From the NCBI RefSeq assembly GCF_963921235.1, contig NC_086097.1:44394001-44458000 (forward strand): a DNA stretch of 64,000 nucleotides, given 5' to 3'. Shown here piece by piece: positions 24,312 to 57,052 of this stretch. Each line of letters opens with the position of its first letter. Within the stretch, counting starts at the first letter, position 1. The notes under the pieces were generated by a model that worked only from the letters and a program-made list of their open reading frames with translations, ran no database searches and was not told the DNA's origin. Made by a program: the position numbers and the translations under genes. The stretch is from Mobula hypostoma. Lineage: Eukaryota.

Positions 24312-25235
24312 TTTATTAATTTCCATAGACGCTGCCTGACCTGATGAGTTCCTCCAACATATGGTGCTCAGGATTTGTAGCATCTGGGGAATCCTGTGTT
24401 TATTGTCTGGTTTATTTCAACTGTACACAGAAATCTTCAAACTTTGTAGCTGACCAATTTCATTATATTTTCATTATACTTTCTTTAATCAATCTAGTGT
24501 TCACTTTCAGCTAAAGAGCAAAATGCTAAGGGCCAGCTATTGTTTAATGTGACAAGTAGTCAATATTTTAAGAGCTCTAAATTATACCTTAATTATAGCA
24601 GAATAGCCTTAATTTGCATTTTATTGAAACTCAGTTCCATTTAATTGAGACAAATTAATGTAATATAGTGTATTTCTTCCCCTCTATACTTATGCAGTCT
24701 AAGTTAGGAATTTAGAGAATAATTTGCAAACCTTTACCGAGCCAAACCCACTTGGTTATCAACACTAATCCTTATAATGCTAAATCATTGTAAATAGAGT
24801 CCATGAGTGACTTTTTTCCCCTCTTATGAATCAGCCAGCATCAGCTCTGCCTATAAATTGTGCTTATTTTGGGAAAATACCTCCAAGTACTGTGAAAGGG
24901 GCTTTACTTTAGTCATGTAATTAATAGATTTGTGAGAAGCAATGTCTGTACCATAACCAGGAACAATTAAAACATCTGCTTTAACAATTATACTGGTGAA
25001 TAGTCAACAAATACTATAACTGTCACTCAACAAAAGAACATTTGATAGGATCTTGAAAGCAGTGCAAAGAGATTCAAAAGAGAAAAACAATCAAATCCCA
25101 TATTTCAATTCCTATTAGCTAGCAATTACACAAAAAAATTTAACAACTTTTACTCAATAAAAAGATGTAAACAACTTTTTAAATCACCTAATAATACCAG
25201 CATTTATTCCCTAAATACATCAGAAGGTGCACTAC

Positions 25236-25970
25236 CTTTATTGACTTATCCATGGAGGCAGAGAGCAGTAAATGGCTGTGTTGTTCCACCGGACACCACT
25301 GTATTGTGGTAACTGGTCCACTATGCTGAGACATCTGAAACACCAAGTGTTTAGGGATTTTTGAGGTCTTGTGTTGGCTCTCCAAATAGGGCTTTATGAA
25401 GTCTGAAACTTTGCTTAGCAGACCTAACTGGTATTCTGCTGGTGCAGTACAATCTATCCCAGTGTCCAAAATGTCTCTGCTTTCTTGAAGTTTGTTGCTT
25501 TTATTACATGCAGCTTCTTTCTCCCTCAATCGCTTGGGTACATAAGGTTTAATATTTTGAGTTCCAGTCATTGAATCTTGAAGTAATCTTTTCTGAGCTG
25601 AAGGGATCATCTTTCCAGTTCTGCCAGATTTCTGCACCAGAGGCAGTGAATTTTCATGGACACCTTTAGAAACCTGGAAGCAAGACTCATCATTTAGAGT
25701 CATCACTGCTGGTCTGGAAGTTACACCAAAGTGTCGCTGTGCAAAATTCTGTGTACTATTCAAACTGCAATCCACATTGCTACCAGTTGAGGCCATTTTT
25801 ACCTGATGACCACATCCTGATGTTTCCATTCTTGAGGTAGTTGGAAATACAGATTGAAGTTCAAAGTTAGAATGAGCAAAATTATCTTTGTCCCGAGTGT
25901 ACTTGATTTCTTCACTTTTGTCATTCTCTGACTCTGAATCTGAGGAGTCATAAGCAACCAGCGAATTCAT
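25236..25970 (-). CDS. WDR25: WD repeat-containing protein 25, first coding exon (245 codons; exon probably starts at 26031)
   Basis: N-terminus MNSLVAYDSSDSE and C-terminal HSGPVTTIQWCPVEQHSHLLLSASMDKSIK match vertebrate WDR25. Phase-0 donor AAG|GTAGT at 25236/25235; acceptor TTTCACCTGCAG|G at 26032/26031. Head-to-head synteny with WARS1. Confidence 0.92.
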
Positions 25971-26712
25971 GTCACATTATGCAATGGAAAGAATCTGCAC
26001 ACAGTTCTGTCTGCGAGGACGTTGGATGTTCCTGCAGGTGAAACATTTTCATAAATTGAAAGAAGTAAATTACACCCTTAGATAGTATAATGTAAATTTC
26101 AACTTTTATTTACTTTTCAAAAGTATGTGGCACTTATTCTCCAAAAGGTTATCATATATTTTTAAAACATGGATTCTCTCCCTTTTGTAAATATGCAATT
26201 GGAAGTTCATCGAGATGATTTCAGGTAATTGTGGTTCAGTATTCCTACTGGAACAACATCTAAAAGTTGTATCGTGACAGGGTCATATACAAAGATGGGC
26301 TATATTCTCTTGGCACCAAGATAAAATCAAAAGTAGATGTCAACTGAATGTATGTGAAAATAATGAAGGTGAGAAGATTGGAATCTATTTAAATATATTC
26401 CAAAAAGGGAGAATGGAATAAGCCACATGAAAATAGACTTACATGTCCAGCATCATTCCAGGGAAAACAAACAATCTGCTGGAAGAACTCAAGATGGTTG
26501 TGCAGCAATTGTGGGAGGAGAGGAATCTATTTGCTGCTTCAGATCCCAGCACCAGCAATCTTTAGTTCCTTCATCTAGAGGAAGTTTTTTTAGGGCCAAA
26601 AATGCAGGATAAAATTTAAATCACCTAGAAGCATATGGTTTTGTAAATTAGAAAAGTATGTGATTAATATTTCTGGACATTCATGCATATGAATGAGCTT
26701 CCATAAAAATTA

Positions 26713-27685
26713 TGTGAGGGGATCCTGCAGTGCCCCTATTAACTGTTTGAAGAGAGACGGAGAGAGACATTCATCATTGATAGTTTGTTTCGAAAGGAGA
26801 GAGAGAGACAGAGTTATTTACCACCGCTATGTTGCTTCTGAAAAGAGAGAGAGAGAGACGAAGATTAACGGTTGGACTGTCACTTTAAGGCATTGGAAGT
26901 AACTTTGGATTTTTACTGAGTTTGGAGTTGGAGACAGCACCGAGCAGCTCGAAGGTTGCTATGGTGACCAAAGGCTGGTTGTTGATGTTACTTTCAAGGA
27001 CATGTTGCCTGCTTGCACTCCTTTACAGACAAAGGAGAGAGGGACTCTTTGAATGACAGGCGATGCTCAGCCTGGTGAAATAAATGAGAGGTCGGATTAT
27101 ACAGACCTCAGGACACATGATCTGGACACTGAATGAGCATTGTGGTGCCCGCACAGAAAGTGGGTTTTGGAGGATCGATCAGGCGGATCGATCCAAATTG
27201 CCATTCCAACGGTAAAGAAGGGGTTGACTGGTGGGGAGTTGTCTATGTGTCCACCCTTGCCGGGGTGATAGCTCCACCACAGGAAGACCGGTCCCCCGGT
27301 TAAAGTCACAGTCGGTGACTTGTAAAGGATTTCGGAGGACGACGAGAAGATCGACGGCATCAGCTCACCCGAGGGCTCAACTCACTCTCTCTCTCTCTCT
27401 CTCTCCATCACTACTCAACTAAATACCACGAACTGAACTGAACTTTACTCAACATCGTAAAACTGTATCTTTTTACCTCTAGACTTAAAGAAGCTTGGTT
27501 TTTTCATACATATATATTCCACACTTACTTTTATATATAATCATTGCTAACCTGTTTGATTTATCTACATTTATATTACTGTATTGTGTAGTTACTAATA
27601 AATATTATTAGTTTATAGCAATATGAGACTCCAAAGTGTTTTCCATCTCTGCTGGTTCTTTATCCCCGTCACGGGGTACGTGACA
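26713..27685 (+). repeat. 5' LTR (973 bp)
   Basis: TGTGAGGGGATCC...GGGGTACGTGACA; direct repeat of 31404-32380. Confidence 0.97.
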
Positions 27686-27692
27686 TAGCAAT

Positions 27693-27711
27693 TGGGGCCT
27701 GCGTCCGCGAT
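27693..27711 (+). promoter_or_regulatory. Primer binding site, tRNA-Pro-like (degenerate)
   Basis: TGGGGCCTGCGTCCGCGAT versus the canonical tRNA-Pro complement TGGGGGCTCGTCCGGGAT, 7 nt after the 5' LTR. Confidence 0.6.
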
Positions 27712-27806
27712 ATGAACAAATTGGTCGGGAGGCTGGTTTGAATTGATTGGGGAAAATCCCTTTTGAATTTGGACTTTTGATTTGGTTGTGTGGAAAAACA
27801 GCAGAA

Positions 27807-28151
27807 ATGGATGTTAGAGACTTTCTGAAATCACCAGACCTGGTGACTTTGAAGTTTGCTAAAAAGTATGAGTTGCGGGACATTGCTAAAGAATTGAGAA
27901 TTGAGAAGGGTGTGAGTAAGGTAGAAATTCAAAGAAAAATAGTTGAATATTATATAGATAAGGGAACATTTAATGAGGAGGTGTTAGAGGTGTTCGTGGA
28001 AGATGAACCTACTGAGGATGAGCTTCAGCTTCTGTTGGAAATATTGAAGAGGGAGCATGAATTGAAATTAAAACAGCTCGAGAGAGAGGCCAGAGAGGCA
28101 GAGAAACAGAGAGAAGAGGCAGAAAGACAGAGACAGCTCGAGAGGGAGTGA
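27807..28151 (+). pseudogene. gag N-terminal remnant
   Basis: MDVRDFLKSPDLVTLKFAKKYELRDIAKEL... followed by an E/R-rich coiled coil, directly downstream of the PBS. Confidence 0.75.
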
Positions 28152-29199
28152 AGAGCAATGTGAAGATCACGTGGCAGAAAGGCAGAGACAGTTTAAAAGG
28201 GAGAGGTTGCAGCAAAGAGGTTTAGAGTCGGACCCTGATGATTCTTACAGCTCGGAAGGGCTAGTTTTGTGTGATGAATTTAAAAGTTGAGCTCCTGATG
28301 AGGTAAGGGCATACCCAGTGGCAGAGGATGCCCCTATCCTGAAGGGGTTTGATAAGAAAGCAGACGAAGAAGTTTTAACCCACGAGGTTGAGTTTACTCC
28401 AGAAGGAAGTTGGCCAGAGAATAGCTGGGAGGTTCGAGATGACCTTGAATTTGAAACTGGGACAAGTGATGAAGGCCTAGAAGAGGCAGCTGTCCCGATT
28501 GCCTGTGTTCAGGTTGTTGAAGTACCTGTGGATTCACAGGGTACTGAACCTTATGTTGAGGCTCAGATAAGGTCTAAGGTGCCTGACTTGGTTGAAAGGG
28601 AATGCAGTCCTTTTGTGTCAGATGGACTTGGTACCAGTGGAATGTGAGGATTCTCAGTCATTTGTAGTAGACTGTGTTTTAAAACCTGGTGAGGTCAGTG
28701 TTGTTGAAAATAATGGCAAAAGTGCTGTTCCTGGACTTTTGGATAAAGTGCTGGAAAAGGTTGGATTGGTTGCGCAACCTTTGACCCTGCTTACAGGACA
28801 AAGGCCTGCTGTGACAGGATGCGCTAGTTTGTTGGATTTTGTTTGGACATTTGGAAGTATGCACTTGCAAGGTCATGCTGTTATTCAGTGTACTGTGATG
28901 GAAGCAAGGCATAGTGAAAGTCAGAGAAAGTTGATAAAAAGATTGTTTGGCCTCTTTCATATTCTCACCAGCCTGATTATGATGCAGAATTTGGTAAACA
29001 ATGGAGGCATGTTGACAGCTCTCCAAGATAAGAGTGTTTCAGCAATTCAGCTGATGTGCAAAGTTTCTGTTGAGGCCTATAGCAAGACCAAAGGTTTAAA
29101 TTATGATGTGTCAGAGACCTTTCTACCTTCCAGATTTCAGCAGGACAGAAGGTAGTACAGCTGATAAGGGTAAGGTGTATAAGAAAAGTTTGTCTTTGT

Positions 29200-29650
29200 T
29201 GAGAAAGGAATGTATCAAGGAACAGAAGCAAGATTCTGAAATGGTGACTTTAGGGGAGATGGCTCTCACAGGAGAGGAGGTTCAGAGAGAGTCAGTGGGA
29301 TATTACCTTAAAGATGGGGTGTTGATGAAGGAGGTGGAGACCAGCCACAGTGCCTGCAAGTCACGTGGTGGTTTTGAAAGGTTACAAGGCTGAAATTTTA
29401 AACATGGCTTACAGTATGCCTTTAGGTGGATGTCATTGTGTAAGAAATGAGGAAAATTGGAACGAGGGGGTTCCCCTCTTCTTATTTAGTGGTGGAGATG
29501 CGATTCAGAAGGCAGTGAAGGGTAATTTGTTGGAACCTGTGTTCAGTTACAGGCCAAAAGGACCTTTGACCTACTCAGAGAATTCTGGAAGGGGTTTAGC
29601 AAGTTTTGTGACTTCGCTAAGGAAAGTTTACAAAACGGTCGAGTCAAAAT
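29200..29650 (+). pseudogene. Integrase remnant with the catalytic core deleted
   Basis: IKEQKQD...YYLKDGVLM and VVVLKGYKAEILNMAYSMPLGGCH (zinc-binding region) run directly into ENWNEGVPLFLF...EPVFSYRPKGPL (end of the core). Confidence 0.7.
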
Positions 29651-30002
29651 AAGACACTTGTTTACTGAAATTGCAGCTGTGAGAATTATTGGAGTACAAA
29701 ATGGAATCGTGAAATCTGATAATGGAATGGAAAAACATGTTTACTCATTGAATCTAGACGCACCAAGATGTCAGAAATCCATTGTTTTGAAAAATATTAC
29801 TTATAAGGTCCACCAGTTGGACCCAAAGCCGAAAAAACAAGTAAAAGTACTAATTGGTGTTTTGAAATGGTACACAGGTGCAATGCATGACATCATTATG
29901 AATTTAGTCCAGCCTATGAAATGGCATCTTCACAGAGTGAACTTTGAGAAAAGTAAAATGGTTGAACAAGAAATTAGAAACAAGAAAGAATAAAGAAAGA
30001 AA

Positions 30003-31278
30003 ATGGATGACGGTATTGATAGAGTGGGGAAGGCCAAATACCTTATTAAGATTGATTTGTTAAAAGGATACCGGGGTGTTCCTTTAACAGAGAGAGTTAA
30101 AGAGATATCAACATTTGTGACACCGTCTAGACTGTATGAATACAATGCTTTACACCTTGGGATGAAAAATCCTCTAGAAACATTTCAAAGAATAATGATC
30201 AATTCTGTGATTGGAGGGTTAGAAAGCACAGGAGTTCATATCACTGATTTAGTGGTCTGGAATGACACATGGGAGGAGCATATTGCAGCTGTAGAGAAAC
30301 TGTTTGATAGACTTTCTAAGGCCAATCTTACTGTGAACCTCGCTAAAAGTAAGTTTGGCCATGCCACAGTCACATATCTGGGTTATGTGGTGGACCAAGG
30401 CCAAATGGCTCCTGTACAGGCAAAGGTTCAAGGGATTGCTGAAGTTCCTGTTCTGACCGACAAGAAAGCTTTAAGAAGGGTTTTAGGAATGGTTGGGTAT
30501 TATAGAAAATTATGTAAGAACTTTGCTGACATTGCTCTCCCCCTAACAAAACTCCTAGGGAAGAGTGAAAGATTTGAATGGAGTGACCCTTGCCAGGAGG
30601 CATTCGAACGTTTGAAAACCATCCTGTGCTCAAAGCACCGGATTTCTCGAAGCCATTTTCTACAACAACAGGTGTTAGTGACGAAGCTGCTGGGGCAGTA
30701 CTGTTACAGAAGGGAGTGAATGACATTGAACACCCAGTAGCTTATTTCTCAAAGAACTTTAATATATACCAGATACACCTAAAAAGCAACTTGGTCTCCG
30801 GACCGGTCACGATCGGGGTGAGGCCCGAACTACCGATGGGAGGTCTTACTCGGTAATGACCTCGCCGGCGGAGAGGTGTACCCAGCAGTAAGATTGACAA
30901 GCCAGGCTGCCAGCATTGAGGCCCCGCCCATGGACTCACAGGTTTATCCCATTTGCGCAGTGACTCGGCGCATGTCCAGAAAGGCTGCCGAAGCAAAAAT
31001 AGATTTAGCATTATTCAACTGTTGAAAAGGAATTACTAGCACTTATTCTGGCTTTACAACATTTTAAGGCCTATGATCAGAGACCTCAAAACCTTTCTGT
31101 TGCTCAGAGACCACTTGTGGTTTGCATGGGTTATAATCCGTTGGTGTTTCTAAATAAAATGAAGGATAAGAATAGAAGGTTGTTAAATTGGAGTCTAGTA
31201 TTGCAGGAAGGTGACTTAAAAATCAAACATGTAAAAGGTACTGACAATGTTATAGCTGATTAGTTATCCAGATATTAA
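30003..31278 (+). pseudogene. RT / RNase H remnant
   Basis: KIDLLKGY, FVTPSRLYEY, HITD in place of YIDD, VTYLGYVV, HPVAYFSK, then YSTVEKELLALILALQHF from 31012 and IKHVKGTDNVIAD near 31222-31260. Confidence 0.9.
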
Positions 31279-31391
31279 GTTGAAAACTGTAACCATTTTT
31301 GCTTTGTCATCTGATGTTTTTTTTCCCTGTATTGTTTAAAACCCTGTGATGGACATTTTAAAAAAATCGTCTTCGACAATTCTTTTTCCTT

Positions 31392-31403
31392 GAGGAAGGG
31401 GAG
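31392..31403 (+). promoter_or_regulatory. Polypurine tract
   Basis: GAGGAAGGGGAG abuts the 3' LTR. Confidence 0.85.
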
Positions 31404-32380
31404 TGTGAGGGGATCCAGGAGTGCCCATATTAACTGTTTGAAGAGAGACGGAGAGAGACATTCATCATTGATAGTTTGTTTCGAAAGGAGAGAGAGAGAC
31501 AGAGTTATTTACCACCGCTATGTTGCTTCTGAAAAGAGAGAGAGAGAGAGAGACGAAGATTAACGGTTGGACTGTCACTTTAAGGCATTGGAAGTAACTT
31601 TGGATTTCTACTGAGTTTGGAGTTGGAGACAGCACCGAGCAGCTCGAAGGTTGCTATGGTGACCAAAGGCAGATCGTTGATGTTACTTTCAAGGACATGT
31701 TGCCTGCTTGCACTCCTTTACAGACAAAGGAGAGAGGGACTCTTTGAATGACAGGTGATGCTCAGCCTGGTGAAATAAATGAGAGGTCAGATGATACAGA
31801 CCTCAGGACACATGATCTGGACACTGAATGAGCATTGTGGTGCCCGCAGAGAAAGTGGATTTTGGAGATCGATCAGGCGGATCGATCCAAATTGCCATTC
31901 CAACGGTAAAGAAGGGGTTGACTGGTGGGGAGTTGTCTATGTGTCCACCCTTGCCGGGGTGATAGCTCCACCACAGGAAGACCAGTCCCCCTGGTTAAAG
32001 TCACAGTCGGTGACTTGTAAAGGATTTCGGAGGACGACGAGAAGATCGACGGCATCAGCTCACCTGAGGGCTCAACTCACTCTCTCTCTCTCTCTCTCTC
32101 CATCACTACTCAACTAAATACCACGAACTGAACTGAACTTTACTCAACATCGTAAAACTGTATCTTTTTACCTCTAGACTTAAAGAAGCTTGGTTTTTTC
32201 ATATATATATATTCCACACTTATTTTTATATATAATCATTGCTAACCTGTTTGGTTTATCTACATTTATATTACTTTATTGCGTAGTTACTAATAAATAT
32301 TATTAGTTTATAGCAATACGAGACTCCAAAGTGTTCTCCATCTCTGCTGGTTCTTTATCCCCGTCACGGGGTACGTGACA
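31404..32380 (+). repeat. 3' LTR (977 bp)
   Basis: Direct repeat of 26713-27685. Confidence 0.97.
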
Positions 32381-33704: not shown

Positions 33705-34327
33705 ATCTCTTGATGACCACCCATTTTAATTCTACTCTGAATTCCCACACCTACATGGCTGTATATGGCCTCCTCTACAGCCATGATGAGGCCAAATGTA
33801 GGATGGAGGAGCAACACATCATATTCCTGATGACATGAACATAAATTTCTCTAACTTCCAGCAACCATTCCCTCTGTTTCCCCCACTCACCCACCTGCAC
33901 TTGGCTTTCCCTCATTCTAGTGGCTCTCTCACCTCTTCTCTTCCCCTCCCTTGCCCTCATGCGTGACCTGCCCATCACCTCCTGGCGGTTCCCCACCTCC
34001 TTCCATTTATTCCATGGTCCATTGTCCTCTCCTTTCAGATTCCTTCTTCTTCACCCCTTTACCTCTTCTACCTATCACCTTCTAGCTTCTTACATCATTC
34101 CCTTTCTTCACACCTGCCCCAGCCACCTACCTTTCCCATCATCAGTGCTCATTTACCACCTGCCAGCTTGTCGTCCTCTCCCTCTCCCCACCTTTTTATT
34201 CTGGCTTCTGCCCCCTTCCTTTCCAATCCTGATGAAGGGCCCTAACCCAAAATGACAACTGTTTATTTCCTTCCATAGGTGCTGATTGACCTGCTGAGTT
34301 CCTCCAGCACTTCGTGTGTATTGCTCA
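33705..34327 (+). mobile_element. Penelope-like 3' fragment
   Basis: CATTTTAATTC...GGCCTCCTCTAC...GGAGGAGCAACAC, a pyrimidine-rich 3' region, a degenerate hammerhead at ~34224-34261 and the shared tail. Confidence 0.75.
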
Positions 34328-36362: not shown

Positions 36363-37029
36363 AAGTCAAATCAGTAATGAGAGTCCTCTTAACATTTTCC
36401 AAGAGCTCTTTACACTCAGCAAAGCAGCTAATTACATAAAATTGGTAATGTATACATAGATACATTCCCAAGATGAAGAAAATAAGGAATTTATTTTTAA
36501 ACTGTGAGGACTTCTGGGACTCAGATCCCTACTAGAAACAATGGTTGAAACTGAACATAAAGAGCTTTAAGAATATCAGTAACGATAAGAAACACTCAGG
36601 GATCAGTCAATCACAATGGAAAGAAACTCGGTTAAGATTGATTAATCAAACTTACAAGTTTGTTTTAGTTAAGTCCAGAGTCCATAAACTTAAAAAAAAT
36701 CTTAAAGGACAGAGAACTAGTTCCAGTCAACAAGTAAAGGTACAACAATTTTATAACATGAAAAGCTATAGAAACATTTTTGAATGAAATACTGTAGTCC
36801 ACAACAACGAATCGCTTGCTCGCTGACAGTGGGGACCTACTCATGCTGACACTTGTCACTTTGAAACTGAATAGAACACTTACCGGATAATTCTTCTTAA
36901 AATGGATAACTATGAATAAAAGGACTTCCTTTCTTCCATTTCTTCCTACCCTGAGAAATATATATCGAGCCGATTAACACGTACAACAACACTAAAAAGA
37001 CAATTTGAGTTGGAAACCCCACTAGAATA

Positions 37030-37670
37030 AGGCCCCGCCTTTAGTCCGTACCATTCATGATTCCCCCGTCACAACGCACTTTCATTTCGTTCCGGCGCTG
37101 GTTAAGCAGCCTTACTCTTCTGAGCTCCTCCAGCATTTTTGTGTGTGTCGCTTACCCCGTGTTCCCGGCTGTAGCTGAAGGAAGGGGAGAAGCGTTTCGC
37201 GAAGCCTGAGCGTGGTGGAAAGACAGGAAGGGAGGAAGAGCCGCAGAGACAAGCCCGGGAGCGCTGCAGCTGCTGTGGAGACGGAACACCGTGTGGGCGT
37301 CGGGGCGTCAGCTCATTGCTGATGCAACCGACGGGGAGGGAAGGTGAGGGCCGGGAATTGGGCTGCATGGGGTCCGGGCAAGGGGGAATGAGGGAGAGGA
37401 TCGGATGAGGACCCTGGACTTGGACTGCGGGAGGGCCACAGGAGAGGAGGAGGAGAAGAAGGAAAGATCGCCTGTCCGAGATCCCGGGAGGGAAAAGAGA
37501 GAAGAGAAAGTGGCGAGGGTGGGCTGTGTGCCCGGGAGAGTGAGAGACGAAGGATAAGAGGAAGGGGCGAGGGCAGACGATCATCTTCTTTATAGCTGTG
37601 GATGAGGGCACAGAGATCCGAGAACCAGCTTGAACCTGGACGTAGGTAAAGGCCGTGAACCTGGCTACTC
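37030..37670. promoter_or_regulatory. CpG/GC-rich bidirectional promoter of WDR25 and WARS1
   Basis: The main non-repeat CpG-rich stretch, lying between the two divergent genes. GC box GGCCCCGCCT at 37031-37040 and ETS core TTCCGG at 37090-37095. Divergent donor candidates at 36884 and 37156 (-) and at 37343 (+). Confidence 0.8.
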
Positions 37671-37770: not shown

Positions 37771-37878
37771 ATGTCAGCTAATAACTGTGAAATATCCACA
37801 ACCCCGATGGATTTGTATATGAAAGTGGCCGAACAGGGGGACACTGTCCGTTTGCTGAAGTCAAACAAGGCACCAAAG
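37771..37878 (+). CDS. WARS1: Tryptophanyl-tRNA synthetase, coding exon 1 (WHEP helix 1; exon starts at 37736)
   Basis: MSANNCEISTTPMDLYMKVAEQGDTVRLLKSNKAPK. Acceptor TTTTTTTACAG|G at 37735 and phase-0 donor AAG|GTAAAG. Too short to appear in the ORF track. Confidence 0.92.
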
Positions 37879-40800
37879 GTAAAGTTTCTGGATAATATAT
37901 AACATAACATTAAGTATGTGTAAACATGCTAAGTACTTTTCAGATGGCCACATTTTCAAGCCATTTCACTGGCTCTGGATAATTTGGACAATGAAAATGC
38001 ATATATCAGGATGCTCTTCATTGAATACAGCTCGGCATTCAACACTATCACTCCTCAAAACTAATCACTAAGCTCCAAGACCTGGGCCCTCATACCTCTT
38101 TGTGCAACTGGATCCTCAATTTTCTCACTTGCAGACTCGTCAAAACTGATTGGCAACAACGTCTCCACAATCACCATCAGCACAGCTGCAATAGAAGGCT
38201 GTGTGCTTAGCCCCCTGCTCTATTCGCTTTATACTTATGACTGGCTAAGCACAACTCCAATGCCATAATTTCATGTGCTGATGACACCACTGTGGTTGAC
38301 TGAATCAAAGGTGATGACTAATCAGCATATAGAAAAAAAGATTGAAAAATGGTTGAATGGTACCACAACAATAACCCATAAGACCATAAGATATAGGAGC
38401 AGAATTAGGCCATTTTGCCTCTCGAGTCTGCTCTGCTATTTCATCATGGCTGATCCGTTTTCTCTGTCGGCCCCATCTCTTTCCTTATCCCCATAACCCT
38501 TCATGCCCTGATCAATCAAGACTCCTGTCAACCTCTGCCCTGAATATATGTAAAGTCTTGGTGTCCACAGCCACCTTTGGCAATGAAATCCACAGGTTCC
38601 CTGCTCTCTGGCAAAAGAAATTCCTCCTAATGTCCATTCTAAAAGTACACTCCTCTATTCTGACGTATCATCCTCTGGTCCTAGATTCTCTCACCATAGG
38701 AAACATTCTCTCCACATCCACTCTATCGAGGCCTTTCAACAATCAATAGGTTTCATTTAGTTCACACCTCATTCTTCTGAATTCCAGTGAGTACAGGCCC
38801 AGAGCCATCAAATGCTCTTCAGGTGACGAGTTGTTCAATCCTGGAATCATTTTCGTGAACCTCCTTTGAACCTTCTCTTTTCTAAGATGAGGGTCCCAAA
38901 ACTGCTCACAATACTCCAAGTGAGGATTCAACAGTGCCTTATAAAGTCTCAAGATTACATCCTTGCTCTTACATTCTAGCCCTCTTGAAATGAATGCTAA
39001 CATCGTATTTATCTTCCTTACCACCAACTCAGCCTGTAAATTAGCCTTTAAGGAATCCTGCAGAAGGACTCAGAAGTCCCTTTGTACCTCCGATTTTTGA
39101 ATTTTCTCTCCATTTAGAAAATAGTCTACCCGTTTATTTCTTCTACCAATGTGTATGACTGTACACTTCCTGACACTATTCCATCTGCCTATTCCTTGCC
39201 CATTCTCCTAATCAGTTTAGGTTCTTCTATAGCGCCTCTACTTTCTCAAAACTGCCTTCCCCTCTGCCTATCTTCGTACCATCAACAACCTTTGCAACAA
39301 AGCTTTTGGTACTGTCATCCAAGTCACTGACATATAACTTAAAAAGAAGTGGTCCCAACACAGACCCCTTTGGAACACCACTAGTCATGGTAGCCGACCA
39401 GAAAAGGCTCCCCTTATTCCCAACCTTGGCCTCCTGCCAACTAGCCACTGCTGTATTCATCCTTGTATTTTTGGGCTGTTAAGCAGCCTCATGTATGGCA
39501 CCTTGTCAAAGGCCTTCTGAAAATCCAAGTACACAACATCCACTGATTCTCTTTTGTTTCTCCTGCTTATTATTTCTTCAAAGAATTCCAGCAGATTTGT
39601 CAGGCAAATTTTCCCTTGAGGAAACCATGCTGACTATGGCCTATTTTATCATGTGCCTCCAAGTATCCCAAAACCACATCGTAAACAATCAACTCCAACA
39701 TCTTCCCAACCACTGAGGTCAGACTAACTGGCCTATCATTTCCTTTCTTTTGCTTCTGTCCCTTCTTGAAGAGTGGAGTGGACTGACATTTGCAATTTTC
39801 GAGTCTTTTGGAACCATTCCAGAATTTAGTGATTCTTGAAAGATCATTACTAATGCCTCCACAATATCTTCAGCCACCTCTTTCAGAACCCTGGGATGCA
39901 CTCCATCTGATCCAGGTGACTTATCTATCTGCAGAACTTTCAGTTTTCCAAGAGCCTTCTCCCTAGTAATGGCAACTTCACACACTTAATTCCCCCAGCA
40001 CCTGGAACTTCCACCATACTGCTAGTATCTTCCACAGTGATGACTGCTCCAAAATACTTACTCAGTTCAACGACTATTTTGTTGTCCCCCATTACTACCT
40101 CTCCAGCATTGTTTTCCAAAGGTCTGATATCCACTTTTGCCTCTCTTTTACACTTTATGTATCTAAAGAAACTTTTGGTATCTTCTTTATATTATTGGCT
40201 AGCTTACTTTTGTATTCCATCTTCACCTTAATGACTTTTTTGTTGCCTTCTGTTGAATTTTAAAAGCTTCCCAATTCTCAACTTCCCACTAATTTTTTCT
40301 CTACTATATGCCCTCTCTTTGGCTTTAATGTTGGCTTTGACTTCCCTTGCCCAAGCTACACACTCTCCCTGCCCCTGAAGCCTTCTCCCTTCTCTCTGCT
40401 GAGTGTGTGTGCTCCAAGTCCCCCAGCTTTGGAGTATCCTGCCTCCATGTGGATGACCACCCTCCCCTGCCTGTCTGTGACTGCAGGTCGTGTTACATCA
40501 AGGCAAAGTTGCTGGACCGGACAGTATCAGCCCCAGGGTACGGAAGGCCCGTGCAAACCAGCTGTCTGGTATTTTGCAGCACCTTTACAATCTGAGTCTG
40601 AGTCAGGAAAAGATACTGGTGCTATGGAAGACTTTGTGCTTGGTTCTTGTACCCAAGAAGGCAACCCTATCTGAACTTAATGACTACAGACCAGTTGCCT
40701 TTACGTCTCATAATAAAGGTACTGGAGAGGCTGGTCCTGACTTAACTTGGGCCGCAGGTGAGATCTTCATTGGACCCTCTACAGTTTGCCTGTCCATCTC

Positions 40801-41518
40801 GTGGGAGTGGATGATGCCATCATCTACCTTGCAGAGAGCTCACTCCCACCAGGATGATGCTGCTGGCATTGTGAGAATCATATTTTTTGATTTCTCTAGT
40901 GCTTTCAATACAATTTACCCACTTCTTCTGAGTGAGAAGCTACAAAGGATTGGAGTAGACAAGTGCACTGTCTACTGGATTACTGACTACCTGACAGATA
41001 GACCCCAGTTTGTACGGCTGGGTAGTTCTCTGTCTGAGATGGTGGTGAGTGGCTATGAAGTGCCACAAAGGACTGTCCTGTCTCCGTTTCTGTTCACACT
41101 GAACACCTCAGTCTTTCAGTACAAATCTGAGTCTTGTCACTTGCAGAAGTTCTCTGATGACTCTGCGGTGGTTGGGTGTATCAGGGATGGGTAGGAGTTG
41201 GAGTACAGAGGATTGAAGGACACGTTTGTGGAGTGGTGCAGGAGGAATCACCTGCTCGTGAATGTGGCCAAAACCAGGGGGATGGTGATTGATTTTAGGA
41301 GGAAGAGGACTGTGACGAGTCCTGTATACATTCTGGGAGAAGAAGTTGCGGTGCTGGAGGAGTACAAATACTTGGGTGTTCACCTCGACAACGAACTTGA
41401 CTGGAAAACCAACACCAGGGCCGTTTACAATAAGGGGAGAGCAGACTCTATTTTCTAAGGAAGCTGAAATCCTTCGATGTGTGCAGCAGGATGTTGGAGA
41501 TCCTTTACCAGTTTGTTC

Positions 41519-41556
41519 TAGTCCTGACGAAGGGTCTCGGCCTGAAACGTCGACTG
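41519..41556 (+). ncRNA. Minimal type I hammerhead ribozyme motif, intact core
   Basis: TAGTC-CTGACGA-agggtctcggcct-GAAA-CGTC-GACTG; the predicted cleavage is after GUC at 41551. Confidence 0.75.
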
Positions 41557-41654
41557 CACCTCTTCCTACAGATGCTGCCTGGCCTGCTGCGTTCACCAGC
41601 AACTTTGATGTGTGTTGCTTGAATTTCCAGCATCTGCAGAATTCCTGTTGTTTG
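41523..41654 (+). mobile_element. 132-bp Penelope-derived short element beginning at a hammerhead motif
   Basis: 9-bp TSD TGTTCTAGT at 41514-41522 and 41655-41663. Nearly identical to the reverse complements of 54129-54260 and 54769-54901. Confidence 0.9.
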
Positions 41655-42389
41655 TGTTCTAGTGAGTGCAGTTTTTGCAGGTTTATATTGGGGAGCAGCA
41701 TCAGCCCTGGAGATGCAAAAAGGCTAAATAACTCATTAAAGAGGATGGATCCGTCCTTGGCTACAACCCAGAATCTCTTAAGTTAGTGGTGGAGAGGAGG
41801 TCACTAAACAAACTGTTATCATCATGGACAATCAGGCACATCCTCTCCATGACCTACTGAATAGGTAGCAGAGTACCCTTTCAAACAGGCTCATTCAGCT
41901 CCACTGTCACAAGGATCGTTACGGAAAATCTTTCCTAGCAAACGCAGTAAGCATATACAGCAGTTCATCTCTGTGCGACAGGAGAGTACACATTTATAGT
42001 ACAATATATTTTATTATTTTGTACATTATTATTGCACATTAAATTATAAGTATATATTTTTATTATCTTTAGTATTAATTAATATTATATTAATTATCAT
42101 TTATTATTATTGCTAAGTGTGTTTTTAAATGTTGCTGTTATAACAAAATAATTTCCCACTCGGGATCAATAAAGTACTTTATTATTGTTAGCCAAGGTTG
42201 TGTCATTTTGCTTTTAGAATACTTCTTCCTCTTTGGGATGTATATATCCTGTGCCTTTCAAATTGCTTCAGAAATTCCAGCCATTGCTGCTCTGCCATTA
42301 TCCGTACCAGTGTTCTTTTCCAATCAATTTTGGCTACCTCCTCTCTCATGCCTCTGTAATTCCCTTTTCTCCACTGTAATACTGATATA

Positions 42390-44303
42390 GAAACAAAAAA
42401 TATACAGCACAATACAGGCCCTTCGGCCCAGAAAGTTGTGCCGAACATGTTCCTACCTTAGAACTGCTTAAGCTTTACCCATAGCCCTCTATTTTTCTAA
42501 GCTCCATGTAGCCATCCAGGAGTCTCTTAAAAGACCCTATCGTTTCCGCCTCCACCACCGCCGCCGGCAGCCCTTTCCACGTACTCACCACTCTCTGTAA
42601 AAAAACTTACCTCTGACATCTCCTCTATACCTGCTTCTAAGCACCTTAAAACTATGCCCTCTCATGCCAGCCATTTCAGTCCTGGGGAAAAGCCTCTGAC
42701 TATCCACATGATCAATGCCTCTCAGTATCTTGCACACGTTTATCAGGTCACCTCTCATCTTCTGTTGCTCCAAGGGGAAAAGGCTGAGTTTACTCAACCT
42801 ATTCTCATAAGGCATGCTCCCCAAACCAGGCAACATCCTTATAAATCTCCTCTGCACCCTTTCTGTGGTTTCCACGTCCTTCCTATAGTGAGGCAACCAG
42901 AAATGAGCACAGTACTCCAAGTGGGGTCCGACCAGGGTCCTATCTTGCTGCAACATTACCTCTTGGCTCTTAAACTCAATCCCACGATTGATGAAGGCCA
43001 ATGCACCGAATGCCTTCTTAACCACAGCATCAACCTGCGCAGCAGCTTTCAGTGTCCTATGGTCTTGGACCCCAAGATCCTCTGATCCTCCACACTGCCA
43101 CGAGTCTTACCATTAATACTATATTCTGCCATCATATTTGACCTACCAAAATGAACCACCTCACGCTTTTCTGGGTTGAACTCCATCTGCCACTTCTCAG
43201 CCCAGTTTTGCATCCTATCAATGTCCTGTTGTAACCTCTGACAGCCCTCCACACTATCCACAACACCCCCAACCTTTGTGTTATCAGCAAATTTACTAAG
43301 CCATCCTCCACTTCCTCATCCAGGTCATTTCTAAAAATCACAAAGAGTGAGAATCCCAGAACAGATCCCTGAGGCACACTACCGGTCACTGACCTCCATG
43401 CAGAAAGTGACCCATCTACAACCACTCTTTGCCTTCTGTGGGCAAGCCAGTTCTGGATCCACAAAGCAATGTCCCCTTGGATCCCATGCCTCCTTACTTT
43501 CTCAATAAGCCTTGCATGGGGTACCTTATCAAATGCCTTGCGAAAATCCGTATACACTACATCTACAGCTCTACCTTCGTCAGTGTGCTTAGTCACATCC
43601 TCAAAAAATTCAATCAGGCTCGTAAGGCACGACTTGCCTTTGACAAGGCCATGCTGACTATTCCTAATCATATTATGCCTCTCCAAATGTTCATAAATCC
43701 TGCCTCTCAGGATCTTCATCAACTTACCAACCACTGAAGTAAGACTCACTGGCCTATAATTTCCTGAGCTATCCCTACTCCCTTTCTTGAATAAGGGAAT
43801 AACACCCGCAACCCTCCAATCCTCCGGAACCTACCTCTCCCATCCTCATTGATGATGCAGAGATCATTGCCAGAGGCTCAGCAATCTCCACCCTCGCTTC
43901 TCACAGTAGCCTGGGGTACATCCTGTCCGGCCCCGGTGACTTATCCAACTTGATGCTTTCCAAAAGCTCCAGCACATCCTCTTCCTTAATATCTACATGC
44001 TCAAGCTTTTCAGTCCACTGCAAGTCATCCCTACAATGGCCAACATCCTTTTCCATAGCGAATACTGAAGCAAAGTATTCATTAAGTACCTCTGCTATTT
44101 CCTCCGGTTCCATACACACTTTTCCATTGTCACACTTGATTGGTCGTATTCTCTCACATCTTATCCTCTTGCTCTTCACATACTTATAGAATGCCTTGGG
44201 GTTTTCCTTAATCCTGTCCGCCATCGCCTTCTCATGGCCCCTTCTGGCTCTCTTAATTTCATTCTTAAGCTTCTTCCTGCTAGCCTGACTTTTTTATTTA
44301 TAT
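42390..44303 (-). mobile_element. Younger CR1 LINE, 5'-truncated, inserted in the older CR1
   Basis: 11-bp TSD ATACTGATATA at 42379-42389 and 44304-44314. RT ORFs at 42585-43025, 43132-43749 and 43901-44224. Confidence 0.92.
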
Positions 44304-46117
44304 ATACTGATATATCTGACTTTTGCTTCTCCTCCTTAAATTTCAGGGTGAAATCGATCATATTATGATCACTTTCCCCTAAGGGTTCTTTTACCTTAAG
44401 CTTTCTAATCAATTCCGGTTCATTGCCCAACACCCAAGTGACTGTTGCAACATTGCCCTTCTGGCATGCATTTTCAATGTCCAGTTTTAGTTTGTATATC
44501 ACATCCTTACTACTGTTTGGGGGTCTGTATATAACTCCCTTCAGGACCTTGCAGTTCCTTAGCTCTACCCACAATGCTTCAACACCTTCTGACTCTATGT
44601 CACCTCTTTCTAATGATTTGATTTCATTTTACCAGCAGCCACGCCACCCCCTCTGCCTGCCTGTCTATCTTTTTGACATTAAGCTCCCAGCTCTAACCTA
44701 CTTTAGGCCATGATTTACTGATCATGACTATCAGCAAAATCAAAGAACTAATTATTGAAGACAAGAGGAAGTAGCCAGAGGTCAATGAGACAGTTCTCAT
44801 TAGCGGATTGGAGGTGGAGAGGGGCAGTGACTTTAAATTTCTTGGCATTATCTTATCAGAGAATCTGTCCTGGGACCAGTCATAAATACCATCACAAAGA
44901 AAGCATGGCAGAGCCTCTAGTAGAAGTTTCCACAGATTTGAAATGTCATCTAAAACATTAACAAACTTCTGTAGATGCACATTGGAGAATATCCTTACTG
45001 GTTGCATCATGGCCTGATATGGAAACACCAATGCCCAAGAATGGAAAAGCCTACAAAAAGTGGGGGACACAATTCAGTCCATCACAGGTAAAGCCCTCTC
45101 CGACATTGTGCACATCTACAAGTAGCGCAGCCACAAGAAAGCAGAATCCATCGTCGAAGACACCCACCAGCTATTACCCTTCAACCAATAGACTCCTGAA
45201 CTAGGATGGATAACTTTAGTCACCTCAACTCTGAACTTATTCCTTAGTCTATGGGCTCATTTTCAAGAACTCGAGAACTCATGTTCTCCATAGTATTTAT
45301 TACTTACATTTTTAAAAAATATATATCATTTGCATATTGTTTGTCAGTCTTTGTGTGTAGTTTTTCTCTCTTCTACAGTGAATGCCTGCAAGAATGTCAA
45401 TGTGACAAATACGTACAATGATAATAAATTTACTTTGAACTTTAAATTTTTACAAAATCTTCCTCTAGTTTTAGAGAGAGATTTAGTTTCAATATCTTTA
45501 ATGCTTTTGTAATCCCTTTTCTCCACTGATTAAATAAGCAAGGTAAATTTATTATAAAACTACATATATACCACCATATGGTACCTATTCATTTTCTTGC
45601 AGGAAAATAAAGAAATACAGTAGAATCTGTGAAAACTATGCATAAACAAAAACTGACAAACAACCAATGTGCAAAAGAAGACAAGTTTATTTGAATCCAG
45701 GGAATATTATTAATCACTCTTGTTTACCTTATTCAATTCCAAATCCTTAAATTATTTGTACACTTTAAAGACTTTTAACATTAGAAAGATGTGGGGTAAC
45801 CTTATTTTGCTTCAGACTTTTCTGTTCAATTTAACAAATAGCAGTATACAATAGTCTGTATTGGTATGCAGAAAAGTAATAGCATTTTATCCAATAATAA
45901 AGTTCTATAATATATATAACTTCACCTTGAATAGTAGAACTGAATGTAAAATTGTTGCTATCGCACTTTTGCTCAATGCTTGAGGTGCTTCTTACTATAG
46001 ATTAGTATGAGCTTTAAAAGGAAAGCTTTTGCCGTTTTCTAAATTTGTATCTTTATTATACCAGGGTAATTTGATCACTTTGTGATACAGAGTGATCTGA
46101 AGTTGGGTCCCAATTTA

Positions 46118-46749
46118 CGAGGGGTGATTGATAAGTTCGTGGCCTAAGCTAGAAGAAGTCAATTTTAGAAAACCTAGCACATTTATTTTTCCTACATTTA
46201 CACACTTAGTCCATTGGCTGTGGAGCATATGGATCCCCTCTTTGTAGAAGCTGGCATCTTGGACCTCCAGAAGTGGTCCACAGCAGGGGTGATTGATAAG
46301 TTTGTGGCCTAGGGTAGAAGGAGATGAGTTATTAACTTAAAACTTTCTGCATTTTCACTCAAAGGATTGAACTGCATGTGCATGTAACAAGAGCTGTATA
46401 ACTCATCTCCTTCTACCTTAGGCTACGGACTTATCAATCACCCCTGCTGTGGACCACCTGGAGGTCCAGGACGCTCTCGTTACAAGCACGTGCAGTTCAA
46501 CTCTTTGAGTGAAAATGCAGAAAGTTTGAAGTTAATAACTCATCTCTTTCTACTTTAGGCCACAAACTTATCAATCACCTCTACTGTGGACCACTTCTGG
46601 AGGTCCAAGATGCCGACTTCTACAAGGAAGGGATCCGTATGCCCCATGACCACTGGACTAAGTCTGTAAATGTAGGAAAAATAAATGTACTAGGTTTTCT
46701 AAAATTGACTCCTTCTACCTTAGGCCACGAACTTATCAATCACCCCTTG
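46118..46749. mobile_element. Palindromic mariner-derived MITE (632 bp)
   Basis: TA dinucleotides at 46116-46117 and 46750-46751. TIR CGAGGGGTGATTGATAAGTTCGTGGCCTAAG at both ends. Inverted arms of ~275 bp. Mariner transposase C-terminus DFYKEGIRMPHDHWTKSVNVG at ~46615-46677. Confidence 0.92.
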
Positions 46750-47127
46750 TAAGTTTGTTTTACCTTGCATGACAAGATTTATAAGTTAGTTTTATAGCAA
46801 GAATGTCAGGGAGTGCAGCGGTTTAGATTGGAGGGTGAACTGATTTCCACAATTTTGACAATCTTTTAAGAGTCAAATCATAGAGTTATACAGCACATTA
46901 TAGGTTTTTACAATAGCATCACCGCTAATTTGAAGATTTATTAGCTATCTGTTTTAAAATTAATTTTATTTCATTTCTATTAAAATTACTTTATAACATT
47001 CTATAAGCTGTAGAGTCACCACTTAATGGACTGGAAGATCGTGTGCAATACCAGAGAGGGGAAAATGGCAAAAATCATCAATGAAATATATATAACTATT
47101 TACAAGCTCCTACTTTTTTTAATTCAG

Positions 47128-54119: not shown

Positions 54120-54311
54120 TAAAAATGTAAACACGAGGAATTCTGCAGATGCTGGAAATTCAAGCAACACACATCAAAGTTGCTGGTGAACGCAGCAGGC
54201 CAGGCAGCATCTCTAGGAAGAGGTACAGTCGATGTTTCAGGCCAAGACTGTTCATCAGGACTAGGGTCTCGAGGCCTTCTGCGTTCACCAGCAACTTTGA
54301 TGTGTGTTGCT
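54120..54311 (-). mobile_element. Penelope-derived short insertion with an internal inversion
   Basis: 14-bp TSD TGAGCTTCCATATT at 54106-54119 and 54312-54325. A - strand copy (54129-54264) is followed by a short + strand piece of the same unit. Confidence 0.88.
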
Positions 54312-54768
54312 TGAGCTTCCATATTGATTGAATTGCTCGTCCACACAGCCAGTACTGATTCTATGGACCAAATGTATCCTCCTGCACTGTTAACCATGAT
54401 ACATGTGATAGATCATTTATGAAGCATAGAAGTGATTCATCACTGAATAAACTTTCCTTTTGTGATTTTGTTAGTTAATTTAAAAGCCTCTATTTCCATT
54501 AAATATAAGGAGCTCTTTTTAAAAAACAAAGATTAAGATTAGCTTTATTTGTCACATGTACATCAAAACATTGGGTGAAGTTTGTGTCAAATCAAATCAG
54601 CAAGGATTATGCTGGGCACAAATGTGGCCACATTTCTACCACCAACCTAGCATGCCCACAACTCACTAAGCCTAGCCGTACAGTTTTGGAGTGTGGGAGG
54701 AAACTAGAGTACCCAGAGGAAACCCACCTGGTCGGTCATGGGAAGAAAATGCTAACTCCTTACAGTTA

Positions 54769-55398
54769 CACAAACAACAGGAATTCTGCAGATGCTGGAA
54801 ATTCAAGCAACACACATCAAAGTTGCTGGTTACGCAGCAGGCCAGGAGGCATCTCTAGAAAGAGGTACAGTCGACGTTTCAGGCCGAGACCCTTTGTCAG
54901 GACTAACTGAAGGAAGAGTTAGTAAGAGATTTGAAAGTTGGAGGGGGAGGGGGAGATCCAAAATGATAGGAGAAGACAGTAGGGGGAGGGATGGAGCCAA
55001 GAGCTGGACAGGTGATTGGCAAAGGGGATATGAGAGGATCATGGGACAGGAGGTCCGGGAAGAAAGACAAGGGGGGGGGGAACCCAGAGGATGGGCAAGG
55101 GGTATATTCAGAGGGACAGAGGGAGAAAAAGGAGAGTGAGAGAAAGAATGTGTGTATAAAAATAAGTAACAGATGGGGTATGAGGGGGAGGTGGGGCATT
55201 AGCGTAAGTTAGAGAAGTCGATGTTCATGCCATCAGGTTGGAGGCTACCCAGACGGAATATAAGGTGTTGCTCCTCCAACCTGAGTGTGGCTTCACCTTT
55301 ACAGTAGAGGAGGCCGTGGATAGACATGTCAGAATGGGAATGGGATGTGGAATTAAAATGTGTGGCCACTGGGAGATCCTGCTTTCTCTGGCGGACAG
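54769..55398 (-). mobile_element. Penelope-like element, 5'-truncated (630 bp)
   Basis: 15-bp TSD AACTC(C/T)TTACAGTTA at 54754-54768 and 55399-55413. ORF 55199-55459 has DLPVATHFNSTSHSHSDMSIHGL...EEQHLIFRLGSLQPDGMNIDF (C-terminus of the GIY-YIG domain). Confidence 0.9.
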
Positions 55399-57052
55399 AA
55401 CTCTTTACAGTTAGCAGCTTGAATTGAGCGCTGATCTTGCAGCCAGTGCTATGAAACATGGGCTAACCACTCCACCCCACTTCATCTACTTTTTATAATT
55501 CATTGACCAAAGAGGGGAAATACGATGGGAAACATAAGGCTACTTGCTTGTGGAACTTATGCCTTTATAAATCTCATATTTCATATTTTGTTATGCAATC
55601 AACCCCCTAACTCTATGATTTCAGTGCAAACCAATTACTCCCAATTATTTTCCCTGTAATATACTGTATGCTTTCTCACAAACTCATCGATTCTCTCCTC
55701 CCTGATTCTTCAAACACCCATCTACTTTTGGAGTAATTTTCAGAACCCATTGAACTTGATCATCAGCACATTTGGGACAACACACCATCTACTGGAAGGA
55801 CATCACAGCACAACATCATGGGCCAAATGACTTGTATTGTGCTGTACCATTCTATGTTTTAACTCAGCAGGTCAAGCAGCATTGTTGGGAGGAGAAATAC
55901 TGTCAACATTTCAGGCCAAAACCTTGCATTAAGGCAAAGAATGGAGAGGCGAGTTAGCCAGCATTGAGAAGAGAAGGGCAGTGGCAAGAAAGGAATCCAA
56001 GGTGAACTGAGAAGGAGTGTAAGGTGACAGGCAGAGAGGGGAGGTGTGTGGGGGTGGAGTTGGGAGACGGTGGCAGTGAATGGTAGATGGAAGCAGATGG
56101 AGAGAGGAAAAACAGATTGAGCATGGTGGGAGTATATCTGGGATATGGGGGGCTTGGGTTGTGATGGGGAAAACCGGAGCCCTTGAGTAAAACCCACACG
56201 GTCACAGGGAGAATGTACAAATTCCACACAGTCGGGATCTAAGATTAAGGTTGAAGCCTTGTCATTAGAACTGTAAGACAACAGCACTACCTAATATACC
56301 ATAGTGCCTTTTCGTTTGTCTTGTGAACCAGCTATCCCATACTTGCAAAATTGCTGGAATGGACCTGGTTCCAAGCCTCCCTTCTGCCCAAATCATACCA
56401 TACAACTGGCTACTGGAGGTAGCTGAGGTCAACAGGACATGGCCTTCCCTTTCTGTGCATCCTCACCATGATATTAAAATGAACGGTACATGGGAGCTCC
56501 GGTACGTTACCAGAGAATATTACGTAGGAAATAGGTGTAGGAGTGAGCTATTTAGTCCTTCTTTCCTGCATACTATTTAGTACATTCGAGGCTGATCATC
56601 CACTTCAGTACATGTTCATCATGAGTATCCTCCCTGTATCTAGTCTGTCTTATACTGTTATAATTTTATAGATTCTATGAGATCTTCATTCATTCTTCCA
56701 TACTCCAGTGAATAAGGACTCAACATATCCAATTTATCTTCATATATCAATCCTGCCATCTCAAGAAATTAATATAATAAACATTATTTTTTATTGTTAT
56801 TGAGCCAGTACATTCCAACTCAGATAAAGACGCCAAAAACTTTACCAGAAACTAGATTGGTTTTCAGCAAGGCCCTGTATAGCTGTTACAAGATATACTT
56901 GTGCTCTAAATGTAAGTGTACCATTCACCTTATCAGCAACTTATTGCATTTGAGATACATGGCTATTAAGAAATCTGCTAAACCACCATTTTATATATAA
57001 GCTTTTACCCAAAGAGACTGCATTTAATATCTTAATTCTTGTTTTGTTATAG

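Follow-up and report, generated by a model that had tools for sequence, protein, structure and literature searches.

A short Penelope-like insert in a WARS1-like intron of Mobula hypostoma begins in a family-wide hotspot of 5' ends at the edge of a minimal hammerhead motif

The window analysed here is a 64,000-nucleotide stretch of the Mobula hypostoma genome, and positions refer to it throughout. WARS1-like coding exons lie on the + strand at 37771-37878 and from 47128, and the gene extends beyond the window end; its exons are presumed to be those of WARS1 from what we take to be tryptophanyl-tRNA synthetase (TrpRS) motifs. The first coding exon is followed by a 9.25-kb intron (37879..47127, +), which contains a decayed LINE reverse-transcriptase region on the same strand (40481..41900; RVT_1 at E 3e-6, below the curated cut-off, and PF09004 at E 1.1e-5). 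Within this LINE lies a 132-bp insert body (41523..41654, +), between the left and right copies of a 9-bp target-site duplication (TSD; 41514..41522 and 41655..41663, +). The initial annotation had placed such an insert in the sense strand of a WARS1 intron, and both the location and the duplication are confirmed, since the two 9-mers are identical (the match breaks at 10 nt in a direct-repeat check) and excision of the insert plus one repeat makes the host LINE reading frame continuous again.

In what follows, the T at 41519 is position 0, so that A+1 is 41520, +135 is the last base of the insert, and the predicted ribozyme cut separates +32 from +33. The last four nucleotides of the left repeat (41519-41522) match the element's own sequence and form a junction microhomology. 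These bases, TAGT, had been read as target-site sequence recruited into the ribozyme. They are indeed present in the target, but they are element sequence as well (the parent reads CAGT-TAGTCC); as TAGT is common to element and target, the 5' end of the insert may be anywhere within 41519-41523.

Several other features share the window. Two 978-bp direct repeats, 97% identical, surround broken gag-like and RT-like frames at 26713-32380; together they make up an LTR retrotransposon, about 5.7 kb long, which lies upstream of the coding exons of WARS1. A 262-codon frame starting MNSLVAY (25188-25976, -), presumably WDR25-like, is head to head with WARS1. There is a CpG-rich stretch at about 37,000-37,500, and a cluster of 39- to 79-bp direct and inverted repeats occupies 46285-46747 of the same WARS1-like intron.

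The insert carries a minimal type I hammerhead (41519..41556, +). Helix I is formed by 41519-41523 and 41552-41556 (GACTG), the core CUGACGA is at 41524-41530 and is followed by an extra A (41531), helix II pairs 41532-41535 with 41540-41543, and GAAA (41544-41547) overlaps the palindrome ACGU (41547-41550) ahead of the predicted cut after 41551, the C of GUC. The intact type I core that had been claimed is therefore present. Helix II had been drawn with a 2-nt loop, which is a forbidden fold; folding predicts a workable helix of four pairs around a CUCG loop, after the unpaired A. The motif has most of the traits of the minimal hammerheads (min-HHR) described in PMC4209133 (this and the other sources are cited from accessible parts of their text): core CUGANGA, GAAA and NUH are intact, there is an extra base between 9 and 10.1, helix III is a loopless palindrome and helix I has 4-5 bp. 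The exception is pair 10.1-11.1, G-U in the window copy where the min-HHR definition has G10.1-C11.1. C replaces T at this pair in 23 of 68 sampled copies, and among 41 distinct variants the pair is G-C in 14 and G-U in 22. Helices I and II have only one-sided changes among these variants, all of which are very close to each other. The hammerhead-model search that had been recommended gave no Rfam hammerhead match at gathering score within the window, and the single Rfam match near the insert (E 3.3) is an unrelated chance match.

Copy numbers were obtained as pattern counts over the 3.48-Gb genome. Exact matches to a 40-mer from the insert number 38,504, against none to its reversed control, so the insert is not a chance occurrence. 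A degenerate 33-mer of the insert matches 73,253 times, and the window copy's own 52-mer 4,440 times. Family density is about one copy per 50 kb; one copy in a 9.25-kb intron is thus expected.

The insert belongs to an autonomous Penelope-like element (PLE). At one sampled locus (L017) an open 380-codon frame has the arrangement RT-linker-GIY-YIG, with YIDD and LYIGET motifs. Pfam assigned no family to the 374-aa piece of L017 itself; 91 homologues (up to E 1e-149) carry RVT_1, some of them GIY-YIG also. The linker between reverse transcriptase (RT) and endonuclease (EN) contains CKRNKCYTC, a zinc-finger-like Cys motif of the kind reported in the RT-EN linker of Neptune and Nematis (PMC8557442), from which the parent appears Neptune-like. 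A search with the N-terminus of a homologue gave 123 matches, nine of them with a 1043-codon frame. In each of three full-length copies examined (3/3), hammerhead and tail lie directly upstream of the open 1043-codon frame, whose ATG is at +171; the unit thus serves an autonomous PLE as 3' tip and as 5' leader alike, and the insert body matches both the PLE 3' end and the first 135 nt upstream of the coding frame. It is 99% identical to the family majority sequence. Partial tandems that form pLTRs were present in 3/3 full-length copies and in 40/40 of the best junction-query matches, a set biased to long matches. The best 40 matches to a query running from hammerhead to ORF were all 99-100% identical. 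The parent family is young, autonomous and present in tens of thousands of copies. On contig C40, two N-terminal matches on one strand (578350 and 581860) are separated by 3,510 bp, which suggests a full head-to-tail dimer and the length of its unit.

Further copies are found in the window. One of the same family is longer (54768..55402, -, antisense to WARS1) and comprises the endonuclease C-terminus, stop, a pyrimidine-rich 3' UTR, hammerhead and tail. A head-to-head PLE insertion (54129..54321, -) consists of a second copy starting at the same edge as the insert (54264-54129) and an inverted arm (54273-54321); such inverted head-to-head arms also occur at many sampled loci. Copies of older subfamilies, 70-80% identical and with CCAG-TCC in place of CAG-TTAG-TCC before the core, lie at 59694, 23103, 24275, 34169-34318, 15898-15969 and 55861-55923. 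A few older-subfamily copies elsewhere also start at the edge (L050:8636, L049:1252). Two loci 2.8 Mb apart (L001 and L029) have the same 5' flank and a junction at +41, with different 3' flanks.

The Penelope origin, the minimal, dimer-type hammerhead and the mobilisation by PLE protein proposed in the initial annotation are supported. The insert is a terminal piece of an autonomous PLE; it is almost certainly a short non-coding cDNA of the Neptune-like element, inserted by target-primed reverse transcription with a 9-bp duplication and 4-nt microhomology at the 5' end. At this locus it is one of tens of thousands of dead copies, an ordinary, non-coding end-piece.

The 3' end of the insert includes an optional 38-nt PLE tail (41617..41654, +), which lies between two preferred 3' ends at about +97 and +135 (cf. 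PMC11167929). Of the 82 3' ends scored, 42 cluster at +89..+105 and 39 at +126..+135; because the local sample was chosen through +52..+91, it under-represents shorter 3' ends. Two groups of 3' ends are linked in PMC11167929 to two internal RT start sites at the tail.

The 5' ends are more unusual in position. Fifty loci from the first 4.2 Mb of contig C1, picked by the 40-mer, together with the window gave 85 segments; three were dropped (identity < 90%) and one was cut by a locus edge, leaving 81. In this local sample 17/81 5' ends are at -2..+5 and 3/81 at +30..+37. The genome-wide count used anchors before which four places were left free and three bases had to be non-parental. The edge window -1..+3, centred on A+1 (41520, +), took 3,698/42,530 (8.7%), a figure in which two-armed insertions may be counted twice and about five of 100 listed junctions look like indels or older-type copies. 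Four control windows took 0.7-2.1%: 728/54,019 (1.35%) at -16..-12, 782/37,839 (2.1%) at -6..-2, 175/23,749 (0.74%) at -501..-497 and, at the cleavage site (+32..+36), 761 of at least 73,253 (at most 1.04%, with a denominator anchor 5 nt longer). Family 5' ends are therefore clustered at the motif, as the initial annotation had proposed to check. Corrected for passage of random flanks through the filter, the edge rate becomes about 20%, against about 3.5% at -16..-12, 2.4% for the cut site and 2.6% at -501..-497; the -6..-2 window rises to about 7%, an upstream shoulder which shows that the edge is not absolute. We are highly confident that the window copy begins within a family-wide hotspot, located at the 5' edge of helix I and used by about one in five copies after detection correction as against 2-4% per 5 nt elsewhere. 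A first edge pattern (9,621/77,662) was set aside as contaminated by the older subfamily. A second hotspot near -497, suggested by 5 of 15 at risk locally, was also rejected on its background frequency genome-wide; the five local ends concerned (in L010, L019 and L039, and at 55399 in the window) adjoin a small hairpin.

The insert had been described as bounded by its ribozyme. The boundary is in fact 29-33 nt upstream of the cleavage site, and since the cleavage site itself is only at background, the 5' ends are not made by ribozyme cleavage. A+1 is the A of parental TTAGTCC and also that of the AG that follows a pyrimidine tract. The parental TTAGTCC and the older CCAGTCC presumably both fit the initiator consensus. 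Two contig joints in sequencing runs, putatively of RNA, also land on A+1; such joints at L018 (1087->1450 and 1126->1450) link endonuclease-coding sequence directly to A+1 and could be nested insertions or template jumps. By hand tally, 27 of 100 listed junctions have TAG before the anchor, and the preceding base is C in 16, G in 4, A in 4 and the parental T in 3 (p 2e-5). This excess of C fits palindromic head-to-head joints between cDNAs whose end is A+1, or 0 if they overlap by 2 nt. Among the same 100, six two-armed insertions have both of their arms at the edge.

The hotspot may be the 5' end of the RNA itself, at which reverse transcription runs off, to which we give a little less than even odds; the best explanation overall, a PLE cDNA produced by run-off at A+1 and inert in WARS1, has a probability of roughly 0.5. 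On this model, the tail (+135 or +97) would be the internal site of the RNA at which PLE protein begins reverse transcription. Where the transcript is linear, uncleaved and begins at A+1, the enzyme would run off after at most 135 nt and leave a cDNA resembling strong-stop DNA, which could be integrated unaltered or after head-to-head joining to another cDNA of the same kind. Longer copies would come from templates without an end at A+1, whether circular, tandem read-through or strand-transferred. The hammerhead would mark the position of the edge but would not cut there. Run-off is favoured because the end is pinned and blunt-joined and the sequence at it is initiator-like. It is also favoured by analogy with the anole element, in which RT initiates internally at two tail sites and requires RNA downstream of them (PMC11167929): only the 5'-proximal site would have such RNA. 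In the same work uncleaved RNA is the main substrate and no reads end at the cut site. The promoter of Penelope is inside the pLTR, with no known route to pLTR regeneration (PMC2377424), and RNA circles made by the hammerhead have been proposed in PMC4209133.

Against run-off is the structure of the full-length copies. Upstream of long open frames, 23 regions were examined, 12 with a sense hammerhead region, one with an inverted arm and 10 without a match. Ten of the 12 extend at least 100 nt upstream, one starts at -20 and one at +16, and none at the edge. Among the full-length copies that reach +3, 0/11 start at the edge (p about 0.09 at a 20% rate). The best 40 junction-query matches, a biased set, all cover -149, and 8/12 of these extend beyond -530. 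A second type of template must therefore be assumed, which argues against a single mRNA from +1 as universal template. The shoulder at -6..-2 and the absence of any excess of cap-derived G before A+1 or G+2 in the 100 listed junctions (hand tally) also count against run-off. So, by analogy, would the Drosophila Penelope, whose start is upstream of the hammerhead and whose intron ends at helix I (PMC4209133, PMC2377424).

Splicing onto the edge was considered as well. The parent (L051:413-436; window 54905-54925, -) has a branch-point-like motif, a pyrimidine tract and an AG ending at +2, which is also where the intron of Drosophila Penelope ends. No good splice donor was found in the 130 nt upstream, and the 81 local segments contained no spliced copies with a shared first exon. 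The 15 joints listed of 153 include no GT..AG joint onto +3; the edge pattern is blind to spliced copies whose exon end resembles CAG.

The strongest alternative, possible although behind run-off, is a stop on a longer RNA, with RT falling off or being captured after copying the 5' strand of helix I. The cause could be refolding of RNA or cDNA, or a protein bound to the hammerhead or to the upstream pyrimidine tract and AG. The peak coincides with the helix I edge and the acceptor-like AG, and the motif is predicted to fold as a single long inactive hairpin (41519-41556). Pass-through in full-length copies is compatible with a stop confined to early synthesis, a phase in which the background end rate is likewise 5-9 times higher. 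A stop explains this pass-through and the missing cap G more simply than run-off does, and it accommodates the upstream shoulder. However, the other hairpin edge, at -498, shows no such accumulation genome-wide despite its five local ends, the cDNA hairpin is predicted to be weak (-2.6 kcal/mol), 1 of 100 listed junctions is a self-primed fold-back through helix I, and the branch-point-like A has no pile-up. A lariat branch-point stop (at -14) in particular is not reflected in the -16..-12 window, which is at background genome-wide.

Random 5' truncation, by which the window copy would start at the motif by chance, aided by the 4-nt microhomology with its target, is improbable. Most copies do end elsewhere (64/81 local segments), corrected background is 2-4% per 5 nt, and the target offered TAGT. 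The edge window nevertheless has 6-8 times the raw rate of the -16..-12 and cleavage-site windows, and background alone would be expected to give about one in seven edge copies. Chance is refuted for the family as a whole; a single copy could still be due to it.

The initial annotation had regarded the insert as a SINE/retrozyme-like derivative mobilised by PLE proteins; as a separate lineage it would be an independent non-autonomous unit starting at the hammerhead and copied from short masters of its own. Sharp 5' clustering and uniform size agree with this, as do 9- to 15-bp duplications in 7/17 edge segments and the three copies identical to the window copy, all of which start at the edge. 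Locally, 5/7 copies with C at +50 start at the edge (Fisher p 0.03). A separate C+50 lineage was nevertheless rejected, the excess being lost in a wider check: of the first 100 copies of the window copy's own haplotype, eight start at the edge, as in the family overall (8.7%). Edge copies occur in six haplotypes, each of which is also found in longer copies; no main haplotype of the long copies is missing among edge copies, which have no private change. With haplotypes shared in this way and no C+50 excess, the short copies must be made repeatedly from the parent. No tandem hammerhead monomers were found, the window unit being single, with one head-to-tail partial repeat in the 50 loci (L025), and the ends of the copies differ from the cut site, which would bound a retrozyme unit. 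There is no head derived from tRNA, 5S or 7SL with a Pol III promoter, the whole unit aligning to the PLE at 99% with no Rfam match. An independent lineage is accordingly very unlikely.

Cutting of the nascent WARS1 intron had also been suggested. All core bases are intact, the strand is sense, and dimers in trans with other transcripts are conceivable given tens of thousands of copies. Folding energies, which are nearest-neighbour figures without Mg or protein, point the other way. The best predicted fold of the monomer pairs the core (-11.0 kcal/mol), an active dimer is put at -11.5 kcal/mol against -22.0 for two inactive monomers, and the modelled probability of helix I, about 0.67 in 61 nt, is close to 0 in contexts of 221 and 401 nt. 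A single min-HHR did not cleave and dimers cleaved only weakly (PMC4209133), the anole motif required PLE protein for cleavage (PMC11167929), and 1/9 frog dimers cleaved (bioRxiv 10.64898/2026.07.22.740005). An active ribozyme cutting WARS1 pre-mRNA, alone or as a dimer, would be compatible with the other explanations but is most improbable, given a single intact sense core in 37,700-64,000, the G-U at 10.1-11.1 and the disfavoured dimer fold, and the copy in WARS1 is probably an inert passenger.

Returning to run-off at A+1, the thousands of 100- to 135-bp inserts could be integrated strong-stop cDNAs. All PLE reverse transcription would then start at the tail near the transcript 5' end, and longer products would need strand transfer or a circle made by the hammerhead. 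This wider proposal is speculative, with perhaps one chance in four of being right. If true, it would explain pLTR regeneration, the lack of edge-starting full-length copies and the purpose of the hammerhead; rebuilding of the pLTR and the role of the hammerhead are stated as open questions in PMC2377424 and PMC4209133. Three constraints bear on these questions: the sharp pile-up at the edge, the lack of one at the cut site and pass-through in every full-length copy checked. The family is very young and has intact frames, and could be assayed as the anole element was.

PLEs and their minimal hammerheads are a known kind of element; the new part is the edge pile-up, a family-wide end pattern which is real and apparently unreported. 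No published pile-up of PLE 5' ends at the hammerhead edge was found, although one may exist in Repbase, in subscription papers or in supplements such as Fig. S2 of PMC11167929, and Lunse et al. 2017, on PLE hammerhead dimers, may already describe short PLE copies bounded by hammerheads.

The closest relatives of the motif are the min-HHR in metazoan PLE pLTRs (PMC4209133), which are likewise of type I with no helix III loop and a palindromic 15.2-16.2, have an unpaired base between 9 and 10.1 and a short helix I, and mostly occur as single dispersed copies from truncated PLEs. Helix II has 4 bp here and 7-8 in the Schistosoma families (PMC4209133). This subfamily also differs in its G-U at 10.1-11.1, and no pile-up of 5' ends is reported in the accessible text of that paper. 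The Anolis Poseidon element PAc (PMC11167929) is similar in that its hammerhead lies where pLTR and ORF meet, a tail separates its two preferred 3' ends, and there is no sign of ends at the cut site. It differs in that its ATG is in stem II, whereas here it is downstream of the tail at +171, and the protein here has a Cys-rich, Neptune-like RT-EN linker; a map of insertion 5' ends is absent from the accessible text on PAc. The Drosophila virilis Penelope (PMC2377424) shares partial tandems, one copy continuing from its 3' UTR into the next, and an acceptor-like sequence at the 5' end of helix I. Its start is 46 nt before a 75-nt intron, whereas no good donor or spliced copy was seen here.

Non-LTR retrozymes (PMC7229834; bioRxiv 10.64898/2026.07.22.740005) are similarly non-coding, have a type I hammerhead, are related to PLE pLTRs and are proposed to be moved by PLE proteins. 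They are tandem monomers of about 170-400 nt, cut to unit length and circularised, whereas the insert is one 135-nt piece, bounded by the tail and the helix I edge instead of cut sites.

In retroviruses and LTR retrotransposons, minus-strand strong-stop DNA results from priming near the RNA 5' end followed by run-off, and a terminal repeat then allows strand transfer. The likeness of the short PLE copies to this product holds if reverse transcription runs off at A+1; the primer here would be nicked genomic DNA rather than a tRNA, and the short product is integrated.
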